A stretch of DNA of 64,000 nt, from positions 23,369-87,368 of the forward strand of contig JALOQJ010000003.1 of NCBI GenBank assembly GCA_025453445.1, given 5' to 3'. A model generated the notes under the pieces. That model was not told the origin of the DNA and did not search any database. It saw only the letters and a program-made list of their open reading frames with translations. Both the position numbers and the translations under genes were made by a program. The stretch is from Candidatus Omnitrophota bacterium. GTDB lineage: Bacteria > Omnitrophota > Gorgyraeia > Gygaellales > Profunditerraquicolaceae. This document shows, piece by piece, positions 3,733 through 40,286 of the stretch (position 1 is its first letter; each line of letters opens with the position of its first letter).

Positions 3733-4554
3733 ATGGATATTCTAATAGCGATTTTAACTTTAGGCAGTTTAGGTTTATTGTTTGGAGTAGGTTTGGCAGT
3801 TGCTTCTAAGCGGCTAAAAGTAGAAGTTGACCCGCGCTTGGAAAAAATCCATGGACTTTTGCCGGGATCAAACTGTGGCGCCTGCGGCGGTGCCGGATGT
3901 TTTGGTTTTGCCGAGGAGATTTTATCCGGAAAGAAAAAAATTGATGCTTGCCGGGTAAGTGAAGATAGCGTTAAAGAAGCGATTGCTGGAATTTTAGGCA
4001 GGGAATTAAAAAAAGATGTTAAAAAAATCGCTGTGCTGCATTGCGCAGGAGGAGTGAAAGTTAAGGATAAATTTATATATGATGGAATAGAGGATTGTAT
4101 TGCGGCAAATCAGGTTTTAGGTGGGATGAAAGAATGCGTATTTGGATGTTTGGGGCTGGGTACTTGCGTAAAAGTGTGCCCTTTTGATGCGATTAAAATG
4201 TCTGTGCCTGATGGTTTGCCAGTAGTTGATGAGAATAAATGTAAGGCCTGTAATAAATGCATTTTAGCCTGTCCTAAAAAATTATTCAGCCTGGTTCCTG
4301 CAACACATACGGTTTACCCCGCCCATGTGCACATGGGCGGGGTTTACGTTGCCTGTATGTCCCATGATTCAGGAAAAGACACCAAGGCAGTTTGTCCTGT
4401 GGGTTGTATTGCTTGTAAACTCTGTGAAAAGGCTTGCCCTGTGGATGCAATACATGTGATTGATAATCTGGCAGTAATAGATTATAATAAATGTACTTTC
4501 TGTGGGAAATGTGTGGAAGTTTGCCCAATGAAAACTATCAGGAAAAGAAAATAA
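3733..4554 (+). CDS. rnfB: Rnf complex subunit B (Fe-S protein)
   Basis: N-terminal TM anchor, CGACGGAGC Fe-S motif and multiple CxxCxxCxxxCP ferredoxin motifs. Confidence 0.8.
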   Translation: MDILIAILTLGSLGLLFGVGLAVASKRLKVEVDPRLEKIHGLLPGSNCGACGGAGCFGFAEEILSGKKKIDACRVSEDSVKEAIAGILGRELKKDVKKIAVLHCAGGVKVKDKFIYDGIEDCIAANQVLGGMKECVFGCLGLGTCVKVCPFDAIKMSVPDGLPVVDENKCKACNKCILACPKKLFSLVPATHTVYPAHVHMGGVYVACMSHDSGKDTKAVCPVGCIACKLCEKACPVDAIHVIDNLAVIDYNKCTFCGKCVEVCPMKTIRKRK

Positions 4555-5159
4555 TGAGAATAGCTGTTTTTGCTTCGGGAAGAGGCAGTAATTTTAACGC
4601 AATTGCAAAGGCTATAAAGAGCCAAAAAATTAAGGCAAGCCTTGCTTTATTAATTTGTGATAATCCAGATGCAGCTGTAATACTTAAGGCAAAACGCTTT
4701 GGGGTAAAAACATTTTTAATTAAACGTGCAGATTATAAAGATAAACCTGATTTTGAGAATAAGATTATTCAGGTTTTGCAAGAAGAAAAAATCAGCCTGA
4801 TTGTTTTGGCTGGGTTTATGCGCATATTAAGCAATGATTTCGTATTGAGATTTAAAAATAAGATCATCAATATACATCCTTCGCTTTTGCCTGCTTTTAA
4901 AGGATCGCATGCTATTCTTGATGCTTTTAATTATGGCGCCAAGGTTACTGGTGTTACTGTGCATTTTGTTGATGAATTAATGGATCATGGCCCGATAATT
5001 TTACAACAGGCATTAAAGATCGAAGAGAATGATACCCTGGAATCCCTTGAGGCAAAAATCCATAAAATAGAGCACAGGCTTTATCCGGAAGCAATCAGGT
5101 TGTGTGTGCAGGCAAGATTAAAGATAAAGGGAAGGAAAGTTCACCCCGCCCTTCATTAG
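4554..5159 (+). CDS. purN: Phosphoribosylglycinamide formyltransferase
   Basis: MRIAVFASGRGSNFNAI..., NIHPSLLPAFKG, formyltransferase core. ATG at 4554 overlaps the rnfB stop (TAATG). Confidence 0.85.
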   Translation: MRIAVFASGRGSNFNAIAKAIKSQKIKASLALLICDNPDAAVILKAKRFGVKTFLIKRADYKDKPDFENKIIQVLQEEKISLIVLAGFMRILSNDFVLRFKNKIINIHPSLLPAFKGSHAILDAFNYGAKVTGVTVHFVDELMDHGPIILQQALKIEENDTLESLEAKIHKIEHRLYPEAIRLCVQARLKIKGRKVHPALH

Positions 5160-12697: not shown

Positions 12698-13999
12698 ATG
12701 ATCGAACGTTATAGCCTACCTAAAATGCAAAATATCTGGCAGGATGAGTTTAAGTTTCAGTCCATGCTGGATATAGAGCTTTTTACTCTAGAGGCTTTAG
12801 CTAAACAAAAACAAGTTCCTTCTGATGCCGTAGCAAGAATCAAGAGAAAAGCTAAATTTAACCTCGCGCAGATTAAAAAAATTGAAGAAAAGACACAACA
12901 TGATATAGTGGCATTCGTCAGCTCCATAGCACAATATATTGGGGCTGATGCTAAATACCTGCATTTAGGCCTGACTTCTTCAGATCTTTTAGATACCACT
13001 CTTGGTTTACAATTGAAAGCTGCTTCAGATATTTTGATTGATGATTTGAATATATTACTTAAAGTATTGGCGCAAAAAGCTAAAAAATGCAAGGATATGG
13101 TTTGTATCGGCCGCACCCATGGCGTACATGCTGAGCCGGTTACTTTGGGCCTGAAATTTGCGCTTTGGTATGATGAAACTAAACGTAATTTAAAACGGCT
13201 TAAGGATGCTAAAGAAGAAATTTCAGTTGGTAAAATCTCCGGAGCAGTCGGTACTTATGCTAATGTTGGGCCGGAAGTAGAAAGTTACGTCTGTAAAAAA
13301 CTTGGGCTAAAGCCGGTGAATATTTCTACGCAGGTTATTCAGAGAGATATTTACGCGCAGTATATGGCAACATTAGCAGTGATTGCAGCTTCATTAGAAA
13401 AATTCGCCCTTGAAATTAGGCATTTGCAACGCACCGAGGTGCGCGAAGTAGAAGAGCCGTTTGCTAAAGGCCAAAAAGGTTCATCTGCTATGCCGCATAA
13501 AAGAAATCCAATAATCTGCGAACGCATTTGTGGCTTAAGCCGTATTTTACGTGCCAATGCAATGGTGGCAATGGAAAATGTTGCTCTTTGGCATGAGCGC
13601 GATATATCGCATTCCTCCGCAGAGCGAATAATTATGCCTGATTCTACAATTCTCCTTGATTACATGCTGCATAAATTTATTAATGTGGCTGAGGGGCTTT
13701 TGGTTTATCCTGAGAATATGCTAAGCAACTTGGTAAAAACAAAAGGTTTATTATTTTCCCAGAGAGTGCTTTTGAATTTGATGGATAAAGGCCTGCCTCG
13801 CCTGAAAGCCTATGATTTAGTGCAGCGTGCAGCAATGCAAGTATGGAAGGAAAATTTGGATTTTAAAGAAACGCTCCTCAAAGACGAAGAAGTCGCCCGT
13901 ATCCTCACAAGAAAAGATTTGGATAAGATTTTTAACTTGGATTATTATTTGCGCAACATAAACAAGATTTATAAAAAAGTCGGTTTAAGGCCCGCCTAA
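12698..13999 (+). CDS. purB: Adenylosuccinate lyase
   Basis: MIERYSLPKMQNIW..., fumarate-lyase signature GSSAMPHKRNP. Confidence 0.9.
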   Translation: MIERYSLPKMQNIWQDEFKFQSMLDIELFTLEALAKQKQVPSDAVARIKRKAKFNLAQIKKIEEKTQHDIVAFVSSIAQYIGADAKYLHLGLTSSDLLDTTLGLQLKAASDILIDDLNILLKVLAQKAKKCKDMVCIGRTHGVHAEPVTLGLKFALWYDETKRNLKRLKDAKEEISVGKISGAVGTYANVGPEVESYVCKKLGLKPVNISTQVIQRDIYAQYMATLAVIAASLEKFALEIRHLQRTEVREVEEPFAKGQKGSSAMPHKRNPIICERICGLSRILRANAMVAMENVALWHERDISHSSAERIIMPDSTILLDYMLHKFINVAEGLLVYPENMLSNLVKTKGLLFSQRVLLNLMDKGLPRLKAYDLVQRAAMQVWKENLDFKETLLKDEEVARILTRKDLDKIFNLDYYLRNINKIYKKVGLRPA

Positions 14000-14016
14000 G
14001 TTTTCTTATCATTACC

Positions 14017-16908
14017 ATGGGATATAAGATTGAAATTAAGGAAAGACCGGGAATTTTTGATGCTGTGGGTAATGGCGTCAAAAAAGACATCCTTGATTTG
14101 GGGATAAATTCCGTAGATCGGGTGCAGTTTATACAAATTTATCTGATTGAAGGCAATATTTCTCAGGATGAAGTAAAGAAAATCTGCGAAGATCTGTTGG
14201 TGGATAAAATCAGCCAGGATTATTCTATCAATAATTCTCAGCCTCCGGTAGCCCGCCGGAATGAATTTGTTGTAGAAGTTGCATATAATCCCGGAGTAAT
14301 GGATCCTGTGGAGTTGTCGGTATTAAAAGCAATTAAAGACTTGGGCATAGACGGCGCTGAGGGAGTAAAAACCGCAAAGAAATACCTGCTCAGGGGAAAA
14401 CTCTCTGCAATACAGCTAAAAACAATTTCTGAAAAACTGCTTTATAATAAATTAATCCAGCATATCGTCAGCTCTCAGCTTTCAGCTCTCAGCTTTCAGC
14501 CTGCCGGGTATAAATTTAATCTTATTACTGTTGATCTTTCAGGCGCTTCCGATAAAAAATTGGAAAAAATCAGCAAAGACGGTCAATTATTTTTGAATCT
14601 TAAAGAAATGCGCCAGATTAAAAATTATTTTAAGGGGTTAGACCGTAATCCCACTGATTGCGAATTAGAAACCTTGGCGCAGACTTGGTCTGAACATTGC
14701 GGGCACAAGACATTTAGAGGAAGAATAAAATATACTGAGCAAATTAAAGATTCAAAACCCAAAACAAAGTTAATAGATAATCTTTTAAAATCTACAATTG
14801 TTAAAGTTACAAAAGAATTGAAAAAGCCGTGGTGTGTTTCGGTATTCCATGATAATTCCGGAGTAATTAAGTTTGACGATAAATATAATGTCTGTTTTAA
14901 AGTAGAAACGCACAATCACCCATCGGCATTGGAGCCTTTTGGCGGAGCAAACACTGGTATCGGGGGCGTGATCCGTGATCCGTTAGGCACAGGTTTGGGC
15001 GCTAAGCCGATTTTAAATACTGATGTTTTCTGTTTTGCGCCGCCTGATTATCCGTTTGATAAATTGCCTCAGGGTACACTTCATCCTAAGAGGATTATGA
15101 AAGGCGTAGTTTCCGGAGTGCGTGATTATGGCAATAAGATGGGAATTCCTACGGTTAACGGTGCAGTATTATTCCATGAAAGATTTGTCGGCAATCCGCT
15201 TGTTTATTGCGGTACTGTGGGAATTATGCCTAAAGATAAGACTTTTAAAGAAACTAAAGTTGGGGATTTGATTGTAGTGGTAGGCGGCCGCACCGGCAGA
15301 GACGGAATTCACGGCGCAACTTTTTCATCCGGTGAACTGACGCATGAGTCGGAAACTATTTCATCCGGAGCAGTGCAAATCGGAAACCCGATCCAGGAAA
15401 AGAAAATGGTAGATACGATATTACAGGCACGCGACATGAATTTATATAACGCGATTACTGACTGCGGAGCAGGCGGCCTCTCTAGCGCAGTCGGAGAGAT
15501 GGGCGCTGAAATCGGGGCAAGAGTTGATTTAGATAAAGTGCCCTTAAAATATTCCGGGTTAACTTATGCGGAAATCTGGATTTCCGAGTCGCAGGAAAGA
15601 ATGGTTTTGGCAGTGCCTAAAACTAATATTGATCGATTGCTTGAGGTTTTTGCTGCGGAAAATGTTGAAGCTACGGTCATCGGAGAATTTAACCAGACAA
15701 AACGGCTCGAACTTTTTTATCAGGGTAATCTGGTTTGTGATTTAAAGATGAAGTTTCTCCACGACGGCCTGCCGCAGCTGGAAAAGAAAGCTGTATTTAT
15801 TCAGGAAAAACACAGAGAGCCGAAATTGCCTGAAACCCAAAACCTGACAAAAAATTTATCAGAGTTATTATCGCATTATGATATTTGTTCCAAGGAATGG
15901 GTGATCCGGCAGTATGATCACGAAGTGCAGGGTGGGTCAATTTTAAAACCTTTAATAGGTATTGTGAATGATGGGCCGTCTGATGCTGCAGTAGCACAGC
16001 CAGTATTAGGCTCAAAAAAAGGCCTGATTATTTCTAACGGGATAAATTTCCGTTTTGGTTTTATTGATCCTTACTGGATGGCGGCATCTTGTATTGATGA
16101 GGCCTTGCGCCAGATTATTTCTGTAGGAGGATCATTGAAAGAAGTGGCGATTCTGGATAATTTTTGCTGGGGTAATCCTGATAAGCCGGACAGGCTTGGT
16201 GGCCTGGTCAGGGCAGCAAACGGATGCTATGATATTGCTAAGGGTTTTGGCGTGCCGTTTATTTCCGGCAAGGACAGCCTTTATAACGAATACAGCGTAA
16301 ATAATAAATCTTTGCCCATACCCGGCACGCTTTTGATTTCTGCCATCGCTGTGATGGATGATATCGCGAAAACAATTTCTATGTATGCAAAAAAATCTGG
16401 TAATTTAATTTATGTAGTCGGCGATACATATGATGAATTAGGCGGTTCGCATTATTATGATACTTTGGGATTTTTAGGCAATAATTGCCCGCGTGTAAAT
16501 ACCAAAAAAGCAAAAGAGGTTTTTAATGCTTTGAGTGCAGCATCATCTGCGGGTTTAATTGAGGCAATGCATGATTGCTCAGAAGGCGGCATTGCTGTGG
16601 CAGCAGCAGAAATGGCTTTTAGCGGCGAGTTGGGAATGGAATTATTTTTATCGGAAGTGCCCTATAAAATGCAAAGCGTAAGGAATGATTCTATACTATT
16701 TTCTGAATCAAATTCCAGATTTATTGTTGAAGTAGAAAAGAAGAATCAGAAAGCCTTTGAGCAAGAATTGCAGGGAATATCTTTTGGCTTGATTGGCTGT
16801 TTATCAAAAGATAAAAATTTTAAGGTGCACAGTATAGAGGGGAAAATCTGTATTGAAGCAGGGATTAATCAATTAAAAGAAGCATGGCTTAAACCATTGA
16901 GGTGGTAG
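14017..16908 (+). CDS. purL: Phosphoribosylformylglycinamidine synthase, PurS-PurL fusion
   Basis: 963 aa. The N-terminal ~80 aa resemble PurS. PurL AIR-synthase-like domains (GIGGVIRDP, GGRTGRDGIHGATFSS). Contains an in-frame heptamer-repeat insertion. Confidence 0.85.
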   Translation: MGYKIEIKERPGIFDAVGNGVKKDILDLGINSVDRVQFIQIYLIEGNISQDEVKKICEDLLVDKISQDYSINNSQPPVARRNEFVVEVAYNPGVMDPVELSVLKAIKDLGIDGAEGVKTAKKYLLRGKLSAIQLKTISEKLLYNKLIQHIVSSQLSALSFQPAGYKFNLITVDLSGASDKKLEKISKDGQLFLNLKEMRQIKNYFKGLDRNPTDCELETLAQTWSEHCGHKTFRGRIKYTEQIKDSKPKTKLIDNLLKSTIVKVTKELKKPWCVSVFHDNSGVIKFDDKYNVCFKVETHNHPSALEPFGGANTGIGGVIRDPLGTGLGAKPILNTDVFCFAPPDYPFDKLPQGTLHPKRIMKGVVSGVRDYGNKMGIPTVNGAVLFHERFVGNPLVYCGTVGIMPKDKTFKETKVGDLIVVVGGRTGRDGIHGATFSSGELTHESETISSGAVQIGNPIQEKKMVDTILQARDMNLYNAITDCGAGGLSSAVGEMGAEIGARVDLDKVPLKYSGLTYAEIWISESQERMVLAVPKTNIDRLLEVFAAENVEATVIGEFNQTKRLELFYQGNLVCDLKMKFLHDGLPQLEKKAVFIQEKHREPKLPETQNLTKNLSELLSHYDICSKEWVIRQYDHEVQGGSILKPLIGIVNDGPSDAAVAQPVLGSKKGLIISNGINFRFGFIDPYWMAASCIDEALRQIISVGGSLKEVAILDNFCWGNPDKPDRLGGLVRAANGCYDIAKGFGVPFISGKDSLYNEYSVNNKSLPIPGTLLISAIAVMDDIAKTISMYAKKSGNLIYVVGDTYDELGGSHYYDTLGFLGNNCPRVNTKKAKEVFNALSAASSAGLIEAMHDCSEGGIAVAAAEMAFSGELGMELFLSEVPYKMQSVRNDSILFSESNSRFIVEVEKKNQKAFEQELQGISFGLIGCLSKDKNFKVHSIEGKICIEAGINQLKEAWLKPLRW
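14466..14500. repeat. Tandem heptamer array YTCAGCY x5 in-frame inside purL
   Basis: cgtcagc tctcagc tttcagc tctcagc tttcagc, encoding SSQLSALSFQP. Confidence 0.8.
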
Positions 16909-17579
16909 GTATGGGAAAAATTAAAAAAATCAGAAGAATTAAAGATGATTTTACCAAAGAAGATCCTTGGCGGGTTTTCAGGATTATGTCAGAATTTGTT
17001 GATGGTTTTGAAGTGCTTTCTAGGGTGGGAAAAGCAGTGTCTATGTTCGGCGGCAGCAGAATTTCTGCCGGCCATAAATATTACAAACTGGCTGAAGAAA
17101 CTGCCTATTTATTAGCAAAAGCAGGCTTTGCAGTAATTACAGGCTCTGGCCCGGGGATCATGGAGGCAGGTAATAAGGGTGCACAGCGCGCTAATGGGCT
17201 TTCTATAGGCCTAAATATTCAGATTCCCACTGAGCAAAAAGCGAATAAGTATGTGGGTACACTTCTGGATTTTCATTACTTTTTTGTGCGCAAAGTGATG
17301 TTTGTTAAATACGCCAAAGCATTTGTAATTATGCCCGGAGGCTATGGTACTTTGGATGAATTATTTGAATCATTGAATTTAATCCAGACTGAACGTATTG
17401 GAAAATTTCCGGTTATTCTGATGGGGAAAAAATACTGGAAAGGCATGCTTAATTGGCTAGGTGATACTGTATTGACAAACAAGACTATCTCAAAAGGTGA
17501 TTTGGATATATTTACCGTTACGGATGATCCGAAAGAAGTAGTCAGGTTAATTAAGAAATTTTATGAAAAGAAATCCTAA
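16902..17579 (+). CDS. LOG-family nucleotide 5'-monophosphate nucleosidase (TIGR00730-type Rossmann protein)
   Basis: PGGYGTLDELFE and GxGxxE motifs typical of LOG/YvdD. Overlaps the purL stop and purQ start. Confidence 0.75.
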   Translation: MVGMGKIKKIRRIKDDFTKEDPWRVFRIMSEFVDGFEVLSRVGKAVSMFGGSRISAGHKYYKLAEETAYLLAKAGFAVITGSGPGIMEAGNKGAQRANGLSIGLNIQIPTEQKANKYVGTLLDFHYFFVRKVMFVKYAKAFVIMPGGYGTLDELFESLNLIQTERIGKFPVILMGKKYWKGMLNWLGDTVLTNKTISKGDLDIFTVTDDPKEVVRLIKKFYEKKS

Positions 17580-18354
17580 GGTTTGTGTATTAAGGACAGC
17601 AGGGACTAACTGCGATAAAGAAACTGCATTTGCTTTTGTGCAAGCCGGCGCGGATGCAGAATTGGTGCATATCAATAAATTTATTCAGCGGGAAAGGAAT
17701 TTTTCCGATTATGAGATTCTTGCCATTCCGGGGGGGTTTAGTTATGGGGATGATGTGGCAGCGGGAAAAATTCTGGCCAATGAATTGCGCACTAAATTAA
17801 TAGATGATTTAAGGCAATTCATTCAGGACGGCAAGTTGATTATCGGGATTTGCAATGGCTTCCAGATTTTAGTTAAAAGCGGTTTACTGCCTGGCAATGA
17901 TATGTTCGAGCAGGAAGTGAGCCTGGTTATAAACGATTCGGGGAAATTTGAGGATCGTTGGGTGTATTTAAAAAGTAAAAAGTCGAAAGTAAACAGTCAA
18001 AAGTGTGTCTGGACGAAGCATTTGCCGGAGGTAATTTATCTGCCGGTGGCGCATGGAGAGGGAAAGTTTATTGTTCAGGATGAAACAATTTTAAAAAAAC
18101 TGAAAGACAACAACGAGGTTGTATTTCAGTATTGCGATGAAGCGGGAAAATTAGCAGGCTATCCGGATAATCCTAATGGTTCGCTGGAGAATATCGCCGG
18201 TATTACTGATCAAACCGGCAGGATTCTCGGGTTAATGCCGCATCCGGAGAGGCATATCAGTGTATTACAGCATCCGCGTTGGATGGGTAAAAAAGAAGGC
18301 GATGGCCTGAGAATTTTTAAAAACGGCGTAGATTATATCAGGAATCATTTTTAA
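17563..18354 (+). CDS. purQ: Phosphoribosylformylglycinamidine synthase glutaminase subunit
   Basis: Class I GATase with catalytic GICNGFQ Cys and MPHPER His. 263 aa. Confidence 0.85.
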   Translation: MKRNPKVCVLRTAGTNCDKETAFAFVQAGADAELVHINKFIQRERNFSDYEILAIPGGFSYGDDVAAGKILANELRTKLIDDLRQFIQDGKLIIGICNGFQILVKSGLLPGNDMFEQEVSLVINDSGKFEDRWVYLKSKKSKVNSQKCVWTKHLPEVIYLPVAHGEGKFIVQDETILKKLKDNNEVVFQYCDEAGKLAGYPDNPNGSLENIAGITDQTGRILGLMPHPERHISVLQHPRWMGKKEGDGLRIFKNGVDYIRNHF

Positions 18355-18363
18355 TATGTATTT

Positions 18364-18397
18364 GGTTGTAGCGGAGGTTTAAACCTCCGCTACAACC
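18364..18397. repeat. 34-bp perfect palindrome centred on GTTTAAAC
   Basis: GGTTGTAGCGGAGGTTTAAACCTCCGCTACAACC. A partial third arm (GCGGAGGTTAACC) supplies the purF-like RBS. A near-identical palindrome is at 39728. Confidence 0.7.
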
Positions 18398-18414
18398 ATG
18401 GCGGAGGTTAACCA

Positions 18415-19812
18415 ATGAGCGGAATTTTCGGGGTAGTATCAAAAAATAATTGCCAGGAAGATCTGTATTATGGTACAGACTATCATTCGCATTTAGGGAC
18501 ACAATTCGCCGGCCTTGCTGTCTGGCAGAATAATGAAATTGCGCGTAAAATTCATGATATTAAGGGAAGCCAGTTCAAGGCAAAATTTTATCAGGATTAT
18601 AAAGAACTACACGGGAAAAAAGGAATAGGCGTAATCAGCGGGCACGAAGAACAGCCGATTTTGGTGCATTCTAAATTTGGGCCCTTTGCCATAGTTACTA
18701 ATGGCTTTATTGAAAATGCCAATGAGCTGGCACAAGAATTATACAAGCAGGGAAAATCTTTTAGTGAAGTTACAAACGGAAGCGTTAATTCCACGGAATT
18801 AATTGCTAAGTTAATTATTTGCGGGAAGGATATCGTTTCTGGTATCGAGGGAATGTTTTCTAAAATAAAAGGCTCCTGTTCGCTGCTTCTTTTAAATAAG
18901 GACGGGCTCTATGCAGCAAGGGATAAGTTTGGTTATTCGCCGTTAATCATCGGGCAAAAAGGCGATGAATGGGCAGTAACTACGGAAAGTTCAGCTCTTT
19001 ATAATTTGGGTTTCAAGGTAAAAAAGAATATCGAGCCCGGAGAAATTGTCTTGCTTGATGACAGCGGCATAAAATCTAAATCCAAACCTGGTAAATGCAG
19101 CCAAATATGTTCTTTTCTCTGGATTTATACCGGTTTTCCTGCTTCTTGTTATGATGGGATTAATGTGGAGATGTCCCGGGAAAGATGCGGCAGATGCTTG
19201 GCGAAAAACGATAAAGTAAGGGCTGATATGGTTTCAGGTATCCCTGATTCAGGGACTGCCCATGCTGTTGGTTATGCTATGGAGTCGAAAGTTCCTTTCC
19301 GCAGGCCGCTGGTAAAATATACGCCCGGATTTGACCGCAGCTATACTCCGGCTTTACAGGAAAGGCGCGATTTAATCGCCCGGATGAAACTTATACCCAT
19401 AGAAGATATCATCAGAGGCAAACGGATTATTTTTTGCGATGATTCCATTGTCAGAGGCACGCAGCTGAAAAATTACACTATTCAGAAACTTAACGAATGC
19501 GGGGCAAAGGAAATCCATTTAAGGATTGCTTGTCCGCCATTAATGTTTCCCTGTAAGTTTAATTATTCCACGCGCACGTTACAGGAATTGGTGGCGCGAC
19601 GGGCGATAAAAACGCTGGAAGGTAAAGACCTGGAGAATGTTTCTGATTATCTTGATGAAGACTCCGGAAAATATAAAAAAATGGTTGCCTGGATCGCCAA
19701 GGATCTGGGGGCAACTACGCTGAAATACCAGAAGATGAGCGATATGATTAATGCCATAGGCCTGCCTAAGAGCAAATTGTGTTTATATTGTTGGACAGGG
19801 AGAGAGGTATGA
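18415..19812 (+). CDS. Amidophosphoribosyltransferase-like protein (PurF homolog with Ser in place of the N-terminal Cys nucleophile)
   Basis: Ntn-GATase-like N-terminus MSGIFGV (PurF is MCGIVG). PRTase motif FCDDSIVRGTQ. Located in the purF position between purQ and purM. Confidence 0.75.
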   Translation: MSGIFGVVSKNNCQEDLYYGTDYHSHLGTQFAGLAVWQNNEIARKIHDIKGSQFKAKFYQDYKELHGKKGIGVISGHEEQPILVHSKFGPFAIVTNGFIENANELAQELYKQGKSFSEVTNGSVNSTELIAKLIICGKDIVSGIEGMFSKIKGSCSLLLLNKDGLYAARDKFGYSPLIIGQKGDEWAVTTESSALYNLGFKVKKNIEPGEIVLLDDSGIKSKSKPGKCSQICSFLWIYTGFPASCYDGINVEMSRERCGRCLAKNDKVRADMVSGIPDSGTAHAVGYAMESKVPFRRPLVKYTPGFDRSYTPALQERRDLIARMKLIPIEDIIRGKRIIFCDDSIVRGTQLKNYTIQKLNECGAKEIHLRIACPPLMFPCKFNYSTRTLQELVARRAIKTLEGKDLENVSDYLDEDSGKYKKMVAWIAKDLGATTLKYQKMSDMINAIGLPKSKLCLYCWTGREV

Positions 19813-20810
19813 CCATGCTTACTTATAAAAAAGCAGGGGTGGATATAAATAAAGCCACGGGCTTTAAAACCAAGATCAAGGCGTTGGTGAGAAAGTCATT
19901 CCGGCCGGAAGTTTTAAAAGATATCGGCGGCTTCGGCAGTTTTTTCAGCATGCCGAAAAATTATAAAGATCCGGTTTTGGTTTCTTCTACCGATGGCGTG
20001 GGGACAAAGTTAAAAATCGCCATCCTTGCGCATAAGCACGATACTATCGGCATTGATGCCGTAGGGATGAACGTAAATGATATTTTATGCACCGGGGCAG
20101 AGCCATTATTTTTCTTAGACTATATCGCAAGCGGTAAATTAAAACCAGATGTGCTTTTTGATGTGGTTAAGGGCATCAATGACGGATGCATTGAGGCAGG
20201 TTGTTCTTTGATCGGAGGTGAAACTGCGGAAATGCCCGGGATGTATAAGGAAGGTGAATACGATATCGGGGCATTTTGCGTAGGCGTTGTAGAGCGTAAG
20301 AATATCATCGATGGTTCAAAGGTTGCTTGCGGAGATGTTGTGATTGGTTTGGAATCAAGCGGGATACATTCCAATGGTTATTCTTTGGTAAGAAAGGTAT
20401 TTACTAAAAATGAATTAATCAGGATGAGTGATGAATTGCTTAAGCCAACACGCATTTATGTTAAACCGGTCCTGGGTTTATTGAAGAAATATCCGCGTTC
20501 GGTCAATGGTATTGCCCATATTACCGGAGGAGCCTTTTACGATAAAATTTCCCGGATTTTGCCGGATAATATAAATGTGAGGATTTATAAAAATTCCTGG
20601 GTTGTGCCGAAGATTTTCCGGCTAATGCAGACTAAGGGTATTATAGAAGATAAAGAGATGTATCATACTTTTAATATGGGTATTGGTATGGTTTTAATTG
20701 TAAAGCCTGAGTTTACCAAAATGATCATTGCTAAATTAGCTGAGTTTCGGCTTAAGGCATGGGTCATAGGTGAGGCAATAAAAGGGAAAAAAGAAGTGGA
20801 ATTGATTTAA
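19809..20810 (+). CDS. purM: Phosphoribosylformylglycinamidine cyclo-ligase (AIR synthetase)
   Basis: DGVGTKLKIA and GGETAEMPG motifs. ATG overlaps the purF-like stop (ATGA). Confidence 0.85.
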   Translation: MTMLTYKKAGVDINKATGFKTKIKALVRKSFRPEVLKDIGGFGSFFSMPKNYKDPVLVSSTDGVGTKLKIAILAHKHDTIGIDAVGMNVNDILCTGAEPLFFLDYIASGKLKPDVLFDVVKGINDGCIEAGCSLIGGETAEMPGMYKEGEYDIGAFCVGVVERKNIIDGSKVACGDVVIGLESSGIHSNGYSLVRKVFTKNELIRMSDELLKPTRIYVKPVLGLLKKYPRSVNGIAHITGGAFYDKISRILPDNINVRIYKNSWVVPKIFRLMQTKGIIEDKEMYHTFNMGIGMVLIVKPEFTKMIIAKLAEFRLKAWVIGEAIKGKKEVELI

Positions 20811-20823
20811 CAAAGGAGGCAAG

Positions 20824-21699
20824 ATGGGTATTATGTCTTTAATCGGAATAATTGTGGTTGTTATATTTTTTATGGGTATCAGAATTGTCCGTCCGACGCA
20901 TCGCGGGCTGATCGAGAGATTCGGTAAATATAACCGTTTTGCCAATCCGGGATTTAACTGGATTTTTCCTGTTATCGAGAATATTTATCAGGTGAATATT
21001 ACTGAGCAGATGGTGGATGCTGAGCCGCAGGAAATTATCACCAATGATAACCTGAATGCCAAAGTGGATGCGCAGGTTTATTTTAAGGTCAAGCCTTCTG
21101 AGCAGGATGTAAAAAACGCAATTTACAATGTGTTTAATTTCCAGTATCAGATTGTCAATTTAGCAAGGACTACCCTTAGGAATATTATCGGCACTCTGAC
21201 ACTTAAATCCGCAAATTCCGAGCGCGGAAAAATTAATGCCGAATTACACCGGACTTTGATGGAAGAAACCTCAAGCTGGGGTATTGAGATTGTTAGGACG
21301 GAATTAAAAGAAATTGACCCGCCTAAAGATGTGCAGGAGACGATGAACAAGGTTGTCAAGGCTGAGAATGAGAAAATTGCGGCTATAGATTATGCTACAG
21401 CTACTGAAACTGCTGCGGATGGCCAGAAGCGCGCGGAGATTAAAAAAGCCGAAGGTATTAAACAGGCTCGGATTCTTGAAGCAGAAGGCGAAGCTGAGGC
21501 AATTAAGCTTGTTAATGAAGCAGCAGAGCATTATTTTGTCGGCAATGCGCAGGTGTTGCGCAAGCTTGAGGCAGTTGAAAAGTCCTTGCAGCATAACGCA
21601 AAGATTGTAGTTCCGGCAAATACAGAGTTAGTTAATGTCATCGGTGAGATGGCAGGTTTCCTGCCGTTGAAAAAAGAAGTAAAGGAAGACAAGAAATAA
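20824..21699 (+). CDS. SPFH/Band-7 (stomatin/prohibitin-like) membrane protein
   Basis: N-terminal TM helix, SPFH core, and an Ala/Glu-rich coiled-coil tail. Confidence 0.8.
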   Translation: MGIMSLIGIIVVVIFFMGIRIVRPTHRGLIERFGKYNRFANPGFNWIFPVIENIYQVNITEQMVDAEPQEIITNDNLNAKVDAQVYFKVKPSEQDVKNAIYNVFNFQYQIVNLARTTLRNIIGTLTLKSANSERGKINAELHRTLMEETSSWGIEIVRTELKEIDPPKDVQETMNKVVKAENEKIAAIDYATATETAADGQKRAEIKKAEGIKQARILEAEGEAEAIKLVNEAAEHYFVGNAQVLRKLEAVEKSLQHNAKIVVPANTELVNVIGEMAGFLPLKKEVKEDKK

Positions 21700-22266: not shown

Positions 22267-23577
22267 ATGAGAATTCTGGTGATTGGCTCAGGCGGCAGAG
22301 AGCATGCGTTAGTCTGGAAAATTGCGCAGTCGAAGCTGGCGGATAAGATATTTTGTGCGCCGGGAAATGGCGGGATTGCCAATTTTGCCGAATGCATTGA
22401 TATTAAGGCTGATGATATCTTGAAGCTGCTTGAGTTTGCCGGAAAAGAAAAAATTGATCTAACAGTTGTCGGCCCGGAGGCACCTTTGTCCTCTGGGATC
22501 GTTGATGAATTTGTTGCGCGGGGATTAAAAATCTTCGGGCCGAGTAAACTGGCAGCACAGTTAGAGGCAAGTAAAGTTTTTGCCAAGGAATTAATGGCAA
22601 AATATTCTGTGCCGACTGCTGCTTTTAAGGTCTTTGACAATCCTGAAGAAGCAAAAAAATATATTGAGCAAGCCGGGGCTCCCTGCGTAGTGAAAGCTGA
22701 TGGCTTGGCAGCCGGAAAAGGCGTAGTTGTGGCTAAAACCGTTGATGAAGCAAAACAGGCTGTCAGAGCAATAATGGAAGAGAGGATTTTTGGCGCATCC
22801 GGCAATAAAATAATTATTGAGGAATGTTTAGAAGGCGAAGAAGCCTCAATTCTCGTTATTACCGACGGTAAAGAAGTAGTTGCTTTGGCTTCAGCCCAAG
22901 ATCATAAAAGAATAAATGACGGAGATTGCGGGCCGAATACCGGCGGTATGGGCGCATATTCTCCGGCGCCGGCAGTGACAAAAGAATTATTCAAAGAAAT
23001 TTTAGATAAAGTAATTTATCGTACCATAGATGGTTTAGCTAAAGAAGGAATAAATTATCATGGCGTTTTATACGCAGGTATTATGTTGACTAAAGATGGC
23101 CCGAAGACGCTGGAATTTAATGTGCGTTTTGGCGATCCGGAGACAGAAGCGATTTTGCCGCGTTTAAAATCCGATTTAGTAGAAATTATGCTTGCTGCTT
23201 CAGAAGGAAAACTTGCGCGCTTAAAGAGCCTGGAATGGGATCCCCGCGCTTGTGTCTGCGTTATCTGTGCCTCAGGCGGTTATCCGGATAATTATGAAAA
23301 AGGAAAAATAATCAGTGGATTAGAAGACGCGCAAAAATTAAATGATATCGTAATTTTTCACGCTGGCACTAAATTGCGCATAATTAATGATGTCGGACAA
23401 AGGCAGGAAAGAGAATATTTAACCGATGGCGGAAGAGTATTGGGCGTGACGGGCCTGGGGAAAACAATTAAGGAAGCTATCGCGCATACTTATCAGGCAG
23501 TAGAAAAAATAAATTTTTCCGGGATGCATTATCGCCGTGATATCGGAAAAAAGGCAGTAGCGAGGGAGGAAAGATGA
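22267..23577 (+). CDS. purD: Phosphoribosylamine--glycine ligase
   Basis: MRILVIGSGGREHALVWKIAQS..., ATP-grasp fold, 436 aa. Confidence 0.9.
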   Translation: MRILVIGSGGREHALVWKIAQSKLADKIFCAPGNGGIANFAECIDIKADDILKLLEFAGKEKIDLTVVGPEAPLSSGIVDEFVARGLKIFGPSKLAAQLEASKVFAKELMAKYSVPTAAFKVFDNPEEAKKYIEQAGAPCVVKADGLAAGKGVVVAKTVDEAKQAVRAIMEERIFGASGNKIIIEECLEGEEASILVITDGKEVVALASAQDHKRINDGDCGPNTGGMGAYSPAPAVTKELFKEILDKVIYRTIDGLAKEGINYHGVLYAGIMLTKDGPKTLEFNVRFGDPETEAILPRLKSDLVEIMLAASEGKLARLKSLEWDPRACVCVICASGGYPDNYEKGKIISGLEDAQKLNDIVIFHAGTKLRIINDVGQRQEREYLTDGGRVLGVTGLGKTIKEAIAHTYQAVEKINFSGMHYRRDIGKKAVAREER

Positions 23578-24050
23578 TCAGTATAATTATGGGTAGTCAG
23601 TCGGATCTGGATACTGTGCAGGAAGCAATTAATGTTTTAAAAGAATTTAAGGCAAAATTTGAGCTAAAGATTTTATCTGCGCACAGGACTCCCAAAGAAT
23701 TAGCTGCTTATATTGAAACTGCCTCGAAAAAATCTACAAAAGTATTCATCTGCGCTGCCGGAGGAGCTGCTGCTTTAGCCGGAGTAGTTGCTGCTCATAC
23801 AACGCTGCCGGTTATTGGTATACCTATTGAGACTAGCAGCTTGAAAGGGATTGATTCGCTACTTTCAACTGTCCAGATGCCCGGAGGAATTCCGGTTGCT
23901 TCAATGAGCATAGGCAAAGCAGGAGCTAAAAACGCAGCACTCTTTGCACTGGAAATTTTGGGCATAAAGAATAAATTAATCAGCGCACAACTGATTAATT
24001 ATAAGCGGCAGATGGCTGAAAAAATCAAAAAAACCAAAATTAAATTATGA
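23574..24050 (+). CDS. purE: N5-carboxyaminoimidazole ribonucleotide mutase
   Basis: IMGSQSDL and SAHRTP motifs (class I PurE). Confidence 0.9.
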   Translation: MISIIMGSQSDLDTVQEAINVLKEFKAKFELKILSAHRTPKELAAYIETASKKSTKVFICAAGGAAALAGVVAAHTTLPVIGIPIETSSLKGIDSLLSTVQMPGGIPVASMSIGKAGAKNAALFALEILGIKNKLISAQLINYKRQMAEKIKKTKIKL

Positions 24051-25105
24051 GTTTGGCGAAAATCGTCAAAATAAGCCCCCAGGGCCCTGATGAAGGATAT
24101 CTTCAGGAAGCAGCCAAAGTTATTAAAAACGGCGGCTTGGTGATAATACCCACGGAAACCGTCTATGGTATTGCCGCTGACATGCTTAATCCGGAAACAA
24201 TCAGCAGGCTATACGAAATAAAAGGCCGGCCCAAGGATAAGCCATTTTCCCTGCATATTGATTCAAAAGAAAAAATTAAAAATTTTGCCAAGGATATTCC
24301 GGTTACGGCATGGAAATTAATTGATAGGTTTTGGCCCGGGCCGTTGACGATAATTTTAGAATCAAAAAATAACTCTACCATCGGCATGCGCATGCCTGAT
24401 GATGAAATAGCCTTGCAGGTGATTGCTTTATCCGGTGTACCCGTAGTTTGCCCTTCGGCAAACCTTTCAGGAAGGCCGGCCCCAATAAATTTTGAACAGG
24501 CGATAAAAGACCTCAAAGATAAGGTAGATTTTGCCATTGACGCAGGCGATGTTTCCCTTGGCAAGGAATCTTCAATCGTAGATTTAACCCGGGATCCTTT
24601 AAAGATTTTGCGCATAGGTGCTATAACAAAAGAAACAATCGAACAGGTGGTGGGTAGAAAAACCGTGCTTTTTGTCTGTACCGGTAATTCCTGCCGTTCG
24701 GTGATGGCCAAGGCGCTTTTAGAAAAGAGCCTAAAACTTAAAAAACGCAGTGACGTAGAAGTCCTTTCTGCCGGAATGATGAGCGCTGGTATGGGCGCTA
24801 CTGAAGCAACTAAGGAAGTGCTGGCAGAAGAAGGCATAGATGTATCGGATCATCGTTCGCAGCGGGTAAGTGAAGATATGCTTAGAAAATCAGATTTAAT
24901 TCTGGTGATGGAAAAAATACACGAAGAAAGAATTCTGCAGCTGGTACCGGAGATAAAAAACAGAGTGTTTTTATTAAAAGAATTTGCTAAAATAGATGAC
25001 ATGAATATTAATATCGATGATCCTATCGGCAGGCCGCTGGAATTTTATGAATTAACTATGGAAACTATAAAAGAGGCAGTGGAAAGGATAAGTAATATAA
25101 TATGA
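24047..25105 (+). CDS. Fusion of threonylcarbamoyl-AMP synthase (YrdC/Sua5/YwlC domain) and low-molecular-weight protein (Tyr/Arg) phosphatase (YwlE-like)
   Basis: N-terminal domain has VIIPTETVYGIAAD (YrdC). C-terminal domain has the CTGNSCRS P-loop of LMW-PTPs. Followed by rpiB and glyA, as in B. subtilis ywlC-ywlE-ywlF-glyA. Confidence 0.8.
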   Translation: MSLAKIVKISPQGPDEGYLQEAAKVIKNGGLVIIPTETVYGIAADMLNPETISRLYEIKGRPKDKPFSLHIDSKEKIKNFAKDIPVTAWKLIDRFWPGPLTIILESKNNSTIGMRMPDDEIALQVIALSGVPVVCPSANLSGRPAPINFEQAIKDLKDKVDFAIDAGDVSLGKESSIVDLTRDPLKILRIGAITKETIEQVVGRKTVLFVCTGNSCRSVMAKALLEKSLKLKKRSDVEVLSAGMMSAGMGATEATKEVLAEEGIDVSDHRSQRVSEDMLRKSDLILVMEKIHEERILQLVPEIKNRVFLLKEFAKIDDMNINIDDPIGRPLEFYELTMETIKEAVERISNII

Positions 25106-39727: not shown

Positions 39728-39759
39728 GCCGTAGCGGAGGTTTAAACCTCCGCTACGGC
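39728..39759. repeat. 32-bp perfect palindrome centred on GTTTAAAC (same family as 18364)
   Basis: GCCGTAGCGGAGGTTTAAACCTCCGCTACGGC, 8 nt upstream of aroK. Confidence 0.7.
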
Positions 39760-39767
39760 ATTAGGTT

Positions 39768-40286
39768 ATGAACAATATTTATTTAGTCGGTTTTATGGGC
39801 ACAGGTAAGACTTCCGTCGGATATGAGCTTGCCAAAAAGATAAAGCAGCAGTTTATTGATCTTGATTCTTTGATTGAGCTGCGTGAGAAAAAGCTGATTG
39901 CAGATATTTTTGCCGAAAAAGGCGAGCCATATTTCCGTAAAGTTGAAAAGCAAGCTTTAAAAGAAGTTGCGAAAGAAAAAGGTTTTGTTGTTGCTACTGG
40001 CGGTGGGATTGTGATCAATCCGGAAAATATTAAAATTATGAAAGAAACAGGTATGTTGATTTGTTTGAGTGCGTCGCCCGAAGTAATTTTAAAAAGGGTG
40101 TCGGGATTAGACCTTCGGCCGCTTATGAATGTTAAAGATCCCAAAAAACAAATTGAACTGCTGTTAAAACTACGCGCGCCATATTATGCCTTGGCAGGTA
40201 AAACAATTGATACATCTAAGTTATCGGTAGGCCGAGTTGTACAAAATATCATCAAAGTCATCAGTAAGAGAGGTTCAAAAAGATGA
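39768..40286 (+). CDS. aroK: Shikimate kinase
   Basis: [16 protein letters not shown]-loop and SK fold. Confidence 0.85.

Follow-up and report, generated by a model that had tools for sequence, protein, structure and literature searches.

The purine operon of a Candidatus Omnitrophota bacterium, analysed here as a window of 64,000 nucleotides (positions 23,369 to 87,368 of contig JALOQJ010000003.1), carries in its purF slot a gene which we name purFx (18415..19812, forward strand, like all of its parts given below) and which encodes a 465-residue PurF-family protein with a degenerate glutaminase domain. On balance, the residues of this protein and the operons in which it is found point to an ammonia-dependent phosphoribosyl pyrophosphate (PRPP) amidotransferase that has taken over the first step of purine synthesis in this lineage. 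By four defining features the protein stands outside the canonical glutamine-dependent PurF enzymes, and yet it most likely works like the ammonia half-reaction of PurF. We favor this reading because the glutaminase site has been dismantled, the residues serving PRPP and the iron-sulfur cluster are invariant, the slot of purF in the operon is occupied, and the canonical purF appears to have been lost repeatedly from the operons of related organisms. The name PurFx is coined here for the whole subfamily to which the protein belongs.

The second codon of purFx is AGC (18418..18420), which places a serine where PurF has its catalytic Cys1, and the translated protein begins MSGIFGVV. The ATG is preceded at a distance of 7 nt by the Shine-Dalgarno sequence GGAGG (18403..18407), and a TAA stands in frame at 18409-18411, just upstream of the start, making an N-terminal extension or a propeptide bearing the missing Cys impossible; a hidden upstream start was rejected on this ground. 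A mis-called start did explain some apparently Cys-less archaeal PurFs (Brown et al. 2011, PMC3261824), but the same rescue is inapplicable to purFx owing to the stop codon directly upstream. In a metagenome scan that supplied 80 loci of close relatives, with PurFx 71-94% identical to the window protein, position 2 is serine in all 80, encoded by AGC in 63 and by AGT in 17. Likewise, among the matches listed, at least 116 of the 120 closest database homologues begin with MSG; these 120 proteins are 73-94% identical to the window protein and all the named ones come from Candidatus Omnitrophota. The first-pass annotation of this DNA had offered a sequencing or strain variant as one of three explanations for the serine, and a single base change would indeed suffice to turn TGC into AGC. 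Nevertheless, an assembly error, a strain-level mutation or a decaying pseudogene has a negligible probability, given that the serine recurs in independent loci with two different codons, is accompanied by several co-varying active-site changes and indels, and lies in an intact reading frame with a strong Shine-Dalgarno sequence and a stop overlapping the start of purM, in a subfamily conserved across phyla. We regard error and pseudogene as already refuted, and excluded, by these comparative data.

The N-terminal domain (residues 1-230; 18415..19104) has the N-terminal nucleophile (Ntn) fold, as judged from its matches to GATase_7 and GATase_6 and from its alignment to the PurF of Bacillus subtilis (1ao0), and this class II amidotransferase domain is all that Pfam recognizes in the protein. 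In the same alignment, with canonical positions given in B. subtilis numbering, Cys1 corresponds to Ser2, His25 is retained as His26, Arg26 is replaced by Leu27, and the canonical LQHRGQ(E/D) stretch around the latter two has given way to the sequence GTDYHSHLGT (residues 20-29; 18472..18501), which is a signature of the subfamily. The glutamine loop R-Y-x-T-x-G, represented by R72-Y73-A-T75 in B. subtilis and by Arg73, Tyr74 and Thr76 in Escherichia coli, is removed by a deletion of about 8 residues between I74 and S75, within the segment GIGVIS (residues 70-75; 18622..18639). Asp127, which binds the alpha-amino group of glutamine, is replaced by Ser126 in the segment NSTEL (residues 125-129; 18787..18801). 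None of the glutamine-binding residues of canonical PurF (Arg26, the R-Y-x-T loop, Asp127) is therefore found in the purFx protein, although the oxyanion-hole pair Asn102-Gly103 (Asn101-Gly102 in E. coli) is present as N96-G97. Both the replacement of the catalytic cysteine by serine and the absence of an R-Y-P-T-x-G stretch, which had been noticed on first inspection of the reading frame, are thus borne out by the alignment.

These features are not peculiar to the window. To delineate the subfamily, 1.84 billion cluster representatives were searched and 91 full-length matches aligned; its hallmarks, every one of which is present in the window protein, are an M-[S/G/T/A]-G-x-F-G start without propeptide, YGTDYHSHLGT in the place of LQHRGQ, the lack of the R-Y-x-T loop and a C-terminal insertion. 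In a neighbour-joining tree PurFx forms a single clade, which includes the window protein and contains neither canonical members nor those of an Ala-type clade considered below. A scan with the N-domain signature against one genome per GTDB species gave at least 600 matches, of which the best 80 loci were examined; PurFx is accordingly present in at least 600 species genomes, from more than 10 bacterial phyla plus Archaea. Among these best 80 loci, the bacterial carriers are Omnitrophota, Planctomycetota, Elusimicrobiota, Thermodesulfobacteriota and Syntrophaceae, Bacteroidales, Spirochaetota, Kiritimatiellia, Verrucomicrobiota, Gemmatimonadota, Acidobacteriota and Clostridia (Agathobacter), and the archaeal ones are Asgard groups, Methanosarcinales, Methanobacteriota and Hadarchaeota, with the reservation that some labels of metagenome-assembled genomes (MAGs) may be unreliable. 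The equivalog model TIGR01134 matches the window protein end to end with 221.5 bits against a cut-off of 350, and the other PurFx members score 182-212 bits versus 523-525 for canonical PurF of Omnitrophota. The source databases label the members plainly as amidophosphoribosyltransferase, and no NCBIfam model separates them. PurFx is an ancient, widespread and distinct paralogue subfamily of PurF. As a separate observation, the PurFx proteins of one locus labelled Hadarchaeota (L010) and of several labelled Pirellulales/Planctomycetia (L003-L009, L016) are 61-66% identical to the Omnitrophota protein, closer to it than those of some loci labelled Omnitrophota, which points to lateral gene transfer or else to errors in the binning or labelling of the MAGs.

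Conservation within the subfamily was assessed on 74 full-length members from the species of these best 80 loci. Position 2 is Ser in 38 of them, Gly in 35 and Val in one; the position of Asp127 is Pro in 41 and otherwise variable; and the R-Y-x-T loop is deleted in every member. In 48 of the 74 species Val stands in for the oxyanion Asn, which suggests that selection does not maintain an oxyanion hole here. We also considered whether Ser2 might itself serve as the Ntn nucleophile, in the manner of penicillin acylase, and rejected the idea, since half of the subfamily has Gly instead and conservation is lacking at the oxyanion and substrate-binding positions. Given this alternation with Gly, the glutaminase site is, to judge from its residues, dead throughout the PurFx family. 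The domain around it is nevertheless maintained: each position of the signature (G20-T21-D22-Y23-H24-S25-H26-L27-G28-T29) is conserved in 69-74 of the 74 species, S75, Q80-P81, S154 and R169-D170 are also essentially invariant, and the mean pairwise identity of 0.52, versus 0.59 for the C-terminal domain, indicates that the N-terminal domain is under selection and not decaying.

The C-terminal part of the protein (residues 231-465; 19105..19809) is a type I phosphoribosyltransferase (PRTase) domain with intact catalytic and PRPP-binding motifs. The IPDSGT motif is found at residues 276-281 and the PRPP-binding loop DDSIVRGTQ at residues 342-350 (19438..19464), the latter as [DE]-D-S-I-V-R-G-T-Q in all 74 species. 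The flexible loop between them (residues 301-325; 19315..19389), KYTPGFDRSYTPALQERRDLIARMK, is a version specific to the subfamily, altered to the pattern KYTPGFDRSYTP..Q..R......K; each of PDSG, K301, Y302, R308, S309, Q315, R318, K325 and [DE]DSIVRGTQ recurs in at least 73 of the 74 species. Cys232 (19108..19110), Cys380 (19552-19554), Cys456 (19780-19782) and Cys459 (19789-19791) align with Cys236, Cys382, Cys437 and Cys440 of B. subtilis PurF, and the protein thus has the four cysteine ligands of the [4Fe-4S] class of PurF, each of them conserved in 73 of the 74 species. An insertion of about 25 residues, specific to the subfamily, falls within residues 395-430 (19597..19704); canonical PurF is without it. 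An AlphaFold (AF2) model computed from a 43-sequence alignment has a mean predicted local distance difference test (pLDDT) score of 89.7 and a predicted template modelling (TM) score of 0.88. Low pLDDT is confined to the flexible loop (residues 301-330), as expected of a mobile element, and the C-terminal insertion comes out as helices whose pLDDT exceeds 90. Compared by Foldseek, the model superimposes over its full length on the PurFs of B. subtilis, Arabidopsis and E. coli with TM scores of 0.80-0.84, and on 1ao0 with 0.83. The best solved relatives are the B. subtilis PurF structures 1ao0 and 1gph (E = 3e-59), the nearest structure is only 29-30% identical to the purFx protein, and none belongs to PurFx. 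The protein accordingly shares with canonical PurF both the type I PRTase domain and the PurF fold, and the intact appearance of this domain, which had been remarked upon from the DDSIVRGTQ motif, holds equally for IPDSGT, for the conserved 301-325 loop and for the fold.

The comparison of operons is the most informative line of evidence. The operon of the window reads purB, a purS-purL fusion, a LOG/TIGR00730 gene, purQ, purFx, purM, an SPFH gene, purD and purE, and no second purF was found by tblastn within the 64-kb window. The state of the operon was classified in the 80 close metagenome relatives, in the window and in two more loci, L001 and L002. The order purQ-purFx-purF-purM is found in 15 loci and in 3 others cut at a contig end, purQ-purFx-purM in 24 (among them the window, its nearest relatives L082 and L083, and L002), and LOG-purFx-purM, with neither purQ nor purF, in 35-37 (among them L001); LOG-purFx-purF was found in none. 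Canonical purF hence adjoins purFx in 18 of the 80 close relatives, the two genes of these operons being 17-23 nt apart and the Cys-PurF, wherever it is checkable, being intact, and about 60 of the 80 have no canonical purF within 10 kb. Where purQ and purF are both missing, the gap between LOG and purFx measures only 13-227 nt, so that no gene can hide there. On the other side of purFx, no locus lacks purM, and purD is retained wherever the locus extends far enough. Canonical purF was never observed in an operon lacking purQ (0/35 versus 15/39, Fisher p = 1.6e-5), which is consistent with a stepwise shedding of glutamine-dependent components, and since the operon states are interleaved on the PurFx tree, canonical purF and then purQ would have been lost from the operon repeatedly. 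PurL alone can use NH4+ in vitro, and the missing purQ would be explained either by a PurL that works on ammonia in these organisms or by a joint relocation of both glutamine-dependent genes.

The slot itself is illustrated by the MAG GCA_028716625.1 (L081), in which the gene order of the window is found with a canonical PurF in place of PurFx (purB, purC, purSL, one gene, LOG, purQ, canonical purF, purM, purD, purE, Sua5, rpiB, SHMT) and with no PurFx within 10 kb. Both genes share the slot in another locus (L019), which reads purQ-purF-purFx-purM. The canonical PurF of Omnitrophota displays a propeptide followed by CGLFG, and has LQHRGEE, RYSTTG and HNGN. PurFx lies inside or next to pur genes in Omnitrophota, in Planctomycetota, in a MAG labelled Hadarchaeota and in Asgard archaea. 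Among the best 80 loci of the species scan, canonical purF stands beside PurFx in 8 distant genomes, Asgard archaea included, those outside Omnitrophota being two Planctomycetota, one Methanosarcinales and four Asgard genomes. In L010, which has a compact pur cluster, PurFx is the sole PurF homologue within a 20-kb locus; in most of the other non-Omnitrophota genomes PurFx stands alone, without pur neighbors. No conserved non-pur neighbor of PurFx was found across the 80 genomes.

Taken in this context, PurFx would convert PRPP to phosphoribosylamine with free ammonia in place of glutamine, and would be the step-1 purine enzyme of the operon and possibly of the cell, with no need for a canonical purF. 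The pocket formed by the invariant GTDYHSHLGT where glutamine was formerly bound may serve for ammonium entry, for its deprotonation, for signalling between this domain and the PRPP site, or for some new chemistry. An omission of glutamine synthetase would save ATP, and most PurFx carriers appear to be anaerobic, which may be taken as a rationale and not as evidence. That purQ, in parallel, has gone from the operons of many relatives is in keeping with a pathway moving from glutamine to ammonia. According to the work of Mei and Zalkin (1989), as cited in PMC3261824, replacement of Cys1 by Ser or Ala in E. coli PurF abolishes the glutamine activity and leaves the ammonia-dependent activity in place. 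These mutants, with Ser at the nucleophile position as in PurFx, provide a precedent for the proposed function, although they are laboratory point changes in an otherwise intact glutamine site, whereas PurFx is a natural lineage in which the whole site has been remodelled and is held under selection. Based on the missing residues and on this analogy, glutamine-dependent synthesis of phosphoribosylamine by the purFx protein is predicted to be absent. A glutamine-independent, ammonia-using enzyme, which had been among the three original explanations, is the best supported of them, with the qualification that its support comes from the anatomy of the protein and from operon comparisons.

Several observations weigh against an ammonia-dependent enzyme acting as the lineage's only catalyst of the first step, and most of them lend themselves to a different explanation, namely that PurFx is a non-catalytic or accessory partner, regulatory or scaffolding and binding PRPP or nucleotides, in a hetero-oligomer with a canonical PurF encoded elsewhere, so that the first step would stay glutamine-dependent. 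Canonical Cys-PurF is common in Omnitrophota (at least 120 protein clusters), and it is 64 kb of the present genome that are visible. In addition, purC is absent from the window, as established by comparing 12698-16908 with L081, in which purC (4343-5050) lies between purB and purSL, and it is absent from nearly all related loci as well; if the pathway is complete, pur genes must also sit elsewhere in the genomes of this lineage, and absence of purF from the operon is not absence from the genome. That purF and purFx are neighbors in 18 of the 80 close relatives, and again in 8 of 80 distant genomes, fits a partner subunit or a regulator equally well. PurF enzymes are homo-oligomers, which makes mixed oligomers conceivable. 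The N-terminal domain, moreover, is not decaying and has acquired an invariant motif, and may have a role beyond the passive admission of ammonia. We nonetheless consider a partner role unlikely, because the majority of the close relatives lack a neighboring canonical purF, because its losses are scattered over a tree on which PurFx stays 71-94% identical, and because all catalytic residues of the PRTase site and the mobile loop are invariant, which a pure regulator would not need; L081, for its part, manages with canonical PurF alone, and PurFx is thus no obligatory partner. The remaining explanation of the first-pass annotation, a regulatory paralogue with the true purF elsewhere, therefore stands in so far as PurFx is a distinct and ancient paralogue family with purF adjoining it in some relatives, and falls in that nothing points to a purely regulatory role.

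The conserved N-terminal motif also invites the hypothesis that this domain has become a new catalytic or capture site, in which the invariant D22-Y23-H24-S25-H26 together with S75 and S154 would hydrolyse another amide donor, or bind and deprotonate NH4+, and feed the old ammonia channel. The motif falls exactly on the loop that holds H25-R26-G27 in the canonical glutamine site, and the identity retained by the domain speaks for selection. Amt channels recruit ammonium and employ a twin-His chemistry, which the combination of an Asp, an aromatic residue, a Ser and two His in PurFx may by analogy resemble. Such a site would nevertheless have to do without a nucleophile at position 2, where half of the family has Gly, contiguous residues seldom make a triad, and the motif could be purely structural or devoted to inter-domain signalling; we give this hypothesis, which overlaps with the ammonia-dependent reading, a probability somewhat lower still than that of the partner role. 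Least probable of the functional alternatives, and in our opinion improbable, is the transfer of the phosphoribosyl group to an acceptor other than ammonia, with only a loose tie to purine synthesis. The scores of 182-222 bits, below the TIGR01134 equivalog threshold of 350, the subfamily-specific flexible loop and C-terminal insertion, and the lack of pur neighbors in most non-Omnitrophota genomes would all be accommodated by it. Against this stand the location of PurFx inside or next to pur genes in Omnitrophota, Planctomycetota, the Hadarchaeota-labelled MAG and Asgard archaea, its replacement of purF in the same slot directly 5' of purM and purD, and the failure of any alternative conserved neighbor to appear across 80 genomes.

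Compared with the canonical [4Fe-4S] PurF (B. subtilis; 1ao0, 1gph; TIGR01134; EC 2.4.2.14), PurFx is alike in the two-domain fold, the type I PRTase motifs and the cluster cysteines, and occupies the same operon place between purQ and purM that canonical PurF has in L081. It differs in being without the propeptide, Cys1, Arg26, the R-Y-x-T loop and Asp127, and in having GTDYHSHLGT, the altered flexible loop and the C-terminal insertion of about 25 residues. A vestigial Ntn domain is also known from beta-lactam synthetase and carbapenam synthetase of the AsnB family, active synthetases homologous to class II amidotransferases which have lost the N-terminal Cys and the glutaminase activity; these perform an ATP-dependent adenylation on a changed substrate, whereas PurFx appears to keep the PRPP chemistry. 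Two other loop-less clades of PurF (P0163, P0183, P0185, P0202, P0217, P0221 and P0253; alignment A3 with P0210, P0197, P0218 and others) were encountered, one that keeps Cys1 and HRG and an Ala-type clade (MAGLFGLS...FYQQHLGE). Both resemble PurFx in lacking the R-Y-x-T loop, in keeping the PRTase and iron-sulfur residues and in falling below the TIGR01134 cut-off (180 bits for P0210), but they carry different N-terminal signatures and lie outside the PurFx clade on the neighbour-joining tree. Examined as a possible match to the crenarchaeal PurF' discussed next, the Ala-type clade proved to have bacterial members (Candidate Phyla Radiation, Bryobacteraceae, Aminicenantes).

Our search of the literature for characterized Cys-less PurFs, purF paralogues, purF1/purF2, purine synthesis in Omnitrophota and purF of Bacteroides returned only the report of Brown et al. 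2011 (Biol Direct 6:63, PMC3261824). These authors describe a crenarchaeal PurF' without the Cys (Ala or Val instead), encoded next to purF and exemplified by Tneu_1904 and Cmaq_0666, suggest that it is an ammonia-dependent PRPP aminotransferase, and call for experiments. PurF' and PurFx, compared here by their descriptions, are alike in the missing N-terminal Cys and in the adjacency to purF and pur genes that is also seen in relatives of the window. However, PurF' has been reported only from Crenarchaeota and has Ala or Val, whereas PurFx has Ser or Gly and is mainly bacterial, with Asgard, Methanosarcinales and other archaea in addition (some of the MAG labels may be unreliable); and PurF' stands beside a canonical purF, whereas the PurFx of the window, like those of L001 and L002, has no purF in its operon, though pur genes adjoin.

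PurF is the textbook glutamine amidotransferase, and if PurFx depends on ammonia, metabolic reconstructions for hundreds of anaerobic lineages, among them Omnitrophota, Planctomycetota, Bacteroidales, syntrophs and Asgard archaea, would be wrong both about the nitrogen donor and about what purine synthesis costs in energy, with a bearing on the nitrogen economy of many uncultured anaerobes. The hypothesis formulated in 2011 for the crenarchaeal PurF' would then be extended to a much larger group and gain comparative support, and the family would represent a natural experiment in the repurposing of an Ntn glutaminase domain. The graded states of the Omnitrophota operon (purF; purF with purFx; purFx; purFx without purQ) make the question directly testable. 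A wider rewiring may be put forward only tentatively, and we would not yet expect it to hold: one clade within the Omnitrophota, and possibly many other PurFx-bearing anaerobes, would draw purine nitrogen from free ammonia, with PurFx in place of glutamine-dependent PurF at the first step, PurL without its glutaminase at the fourth step in the lineages lacking purQ, and the D-Y-H-S-H pocket as a dedicated site for capturing and deprotonating ammonium where the old intramolecular ammonia channel opens. If so, energy-limited cells would be spared the ATP cost of glutamine synthesis.

Some features of the genes around purFx deserve mention. Upstream lies purQ (17563..18354, forward strand), encoding the glutaminase subunit of formylglycinamidine ribonucleotide (FGAM) synthase, and downstream purM (19809..20810, forward strand), whose start overlaps the stop of purFx in the sequence ATGA at 19809-19812, an arrangement that suggests translational coupling. 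PurL (14017-16908) has 963 residues, its FGAM synthase II core being preceded by two fused PurS-like segments (residues 4-73 and 84-148) at the N-terminus. The LOG/TIGR00730 gene between purL and purQ (16902-17579) belongs to the PpnN-like nucleotide 5'-monophosphate nucleosidase family and is an invariable component of the pur operon in Omnitrophota, L081 included. An SPFH/band-7 gene of HflK/C-like type (20824-21699) separates purM from purD, and only some of the related operons have it. On the 3' side of purE, 24047-25105 encodes a threonylcarbamoyl-AMP synthase of the TsaC/Sua5 type fused to a low-molecular-weight phosphatase or ArsC-like domain; L081 has an equal fusion in an equal position.

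The spacing between purQ and purFx, only about 16 nt in most relatives, accommodates in the window a 16-bp hairpin (18364..18397, forward strand; -34.5 kcal/mol, z -5.1) built on a 26-nt perfect palindrome. A search of the operon for structured RNA families gave only a sub-threshold chance match, which falls on this hairpin. The 5' arm repeats the Shine-Dalgarno sequence of purFx, GCGGAGGTT, and by virtue of this duplication the 3' arm could alternatively mask the real one. The palindrome, GTAGCGGAGGTTTAAACCTCCGCTAC, occurs twice in the window, where none is expected by chance, and may be either a repetitive extragenic palindromic (REP)-like element or a translational switch. Its second, identical copy (39731-39756) is located 12 nt upstream of the open reading frame 39768-40286.

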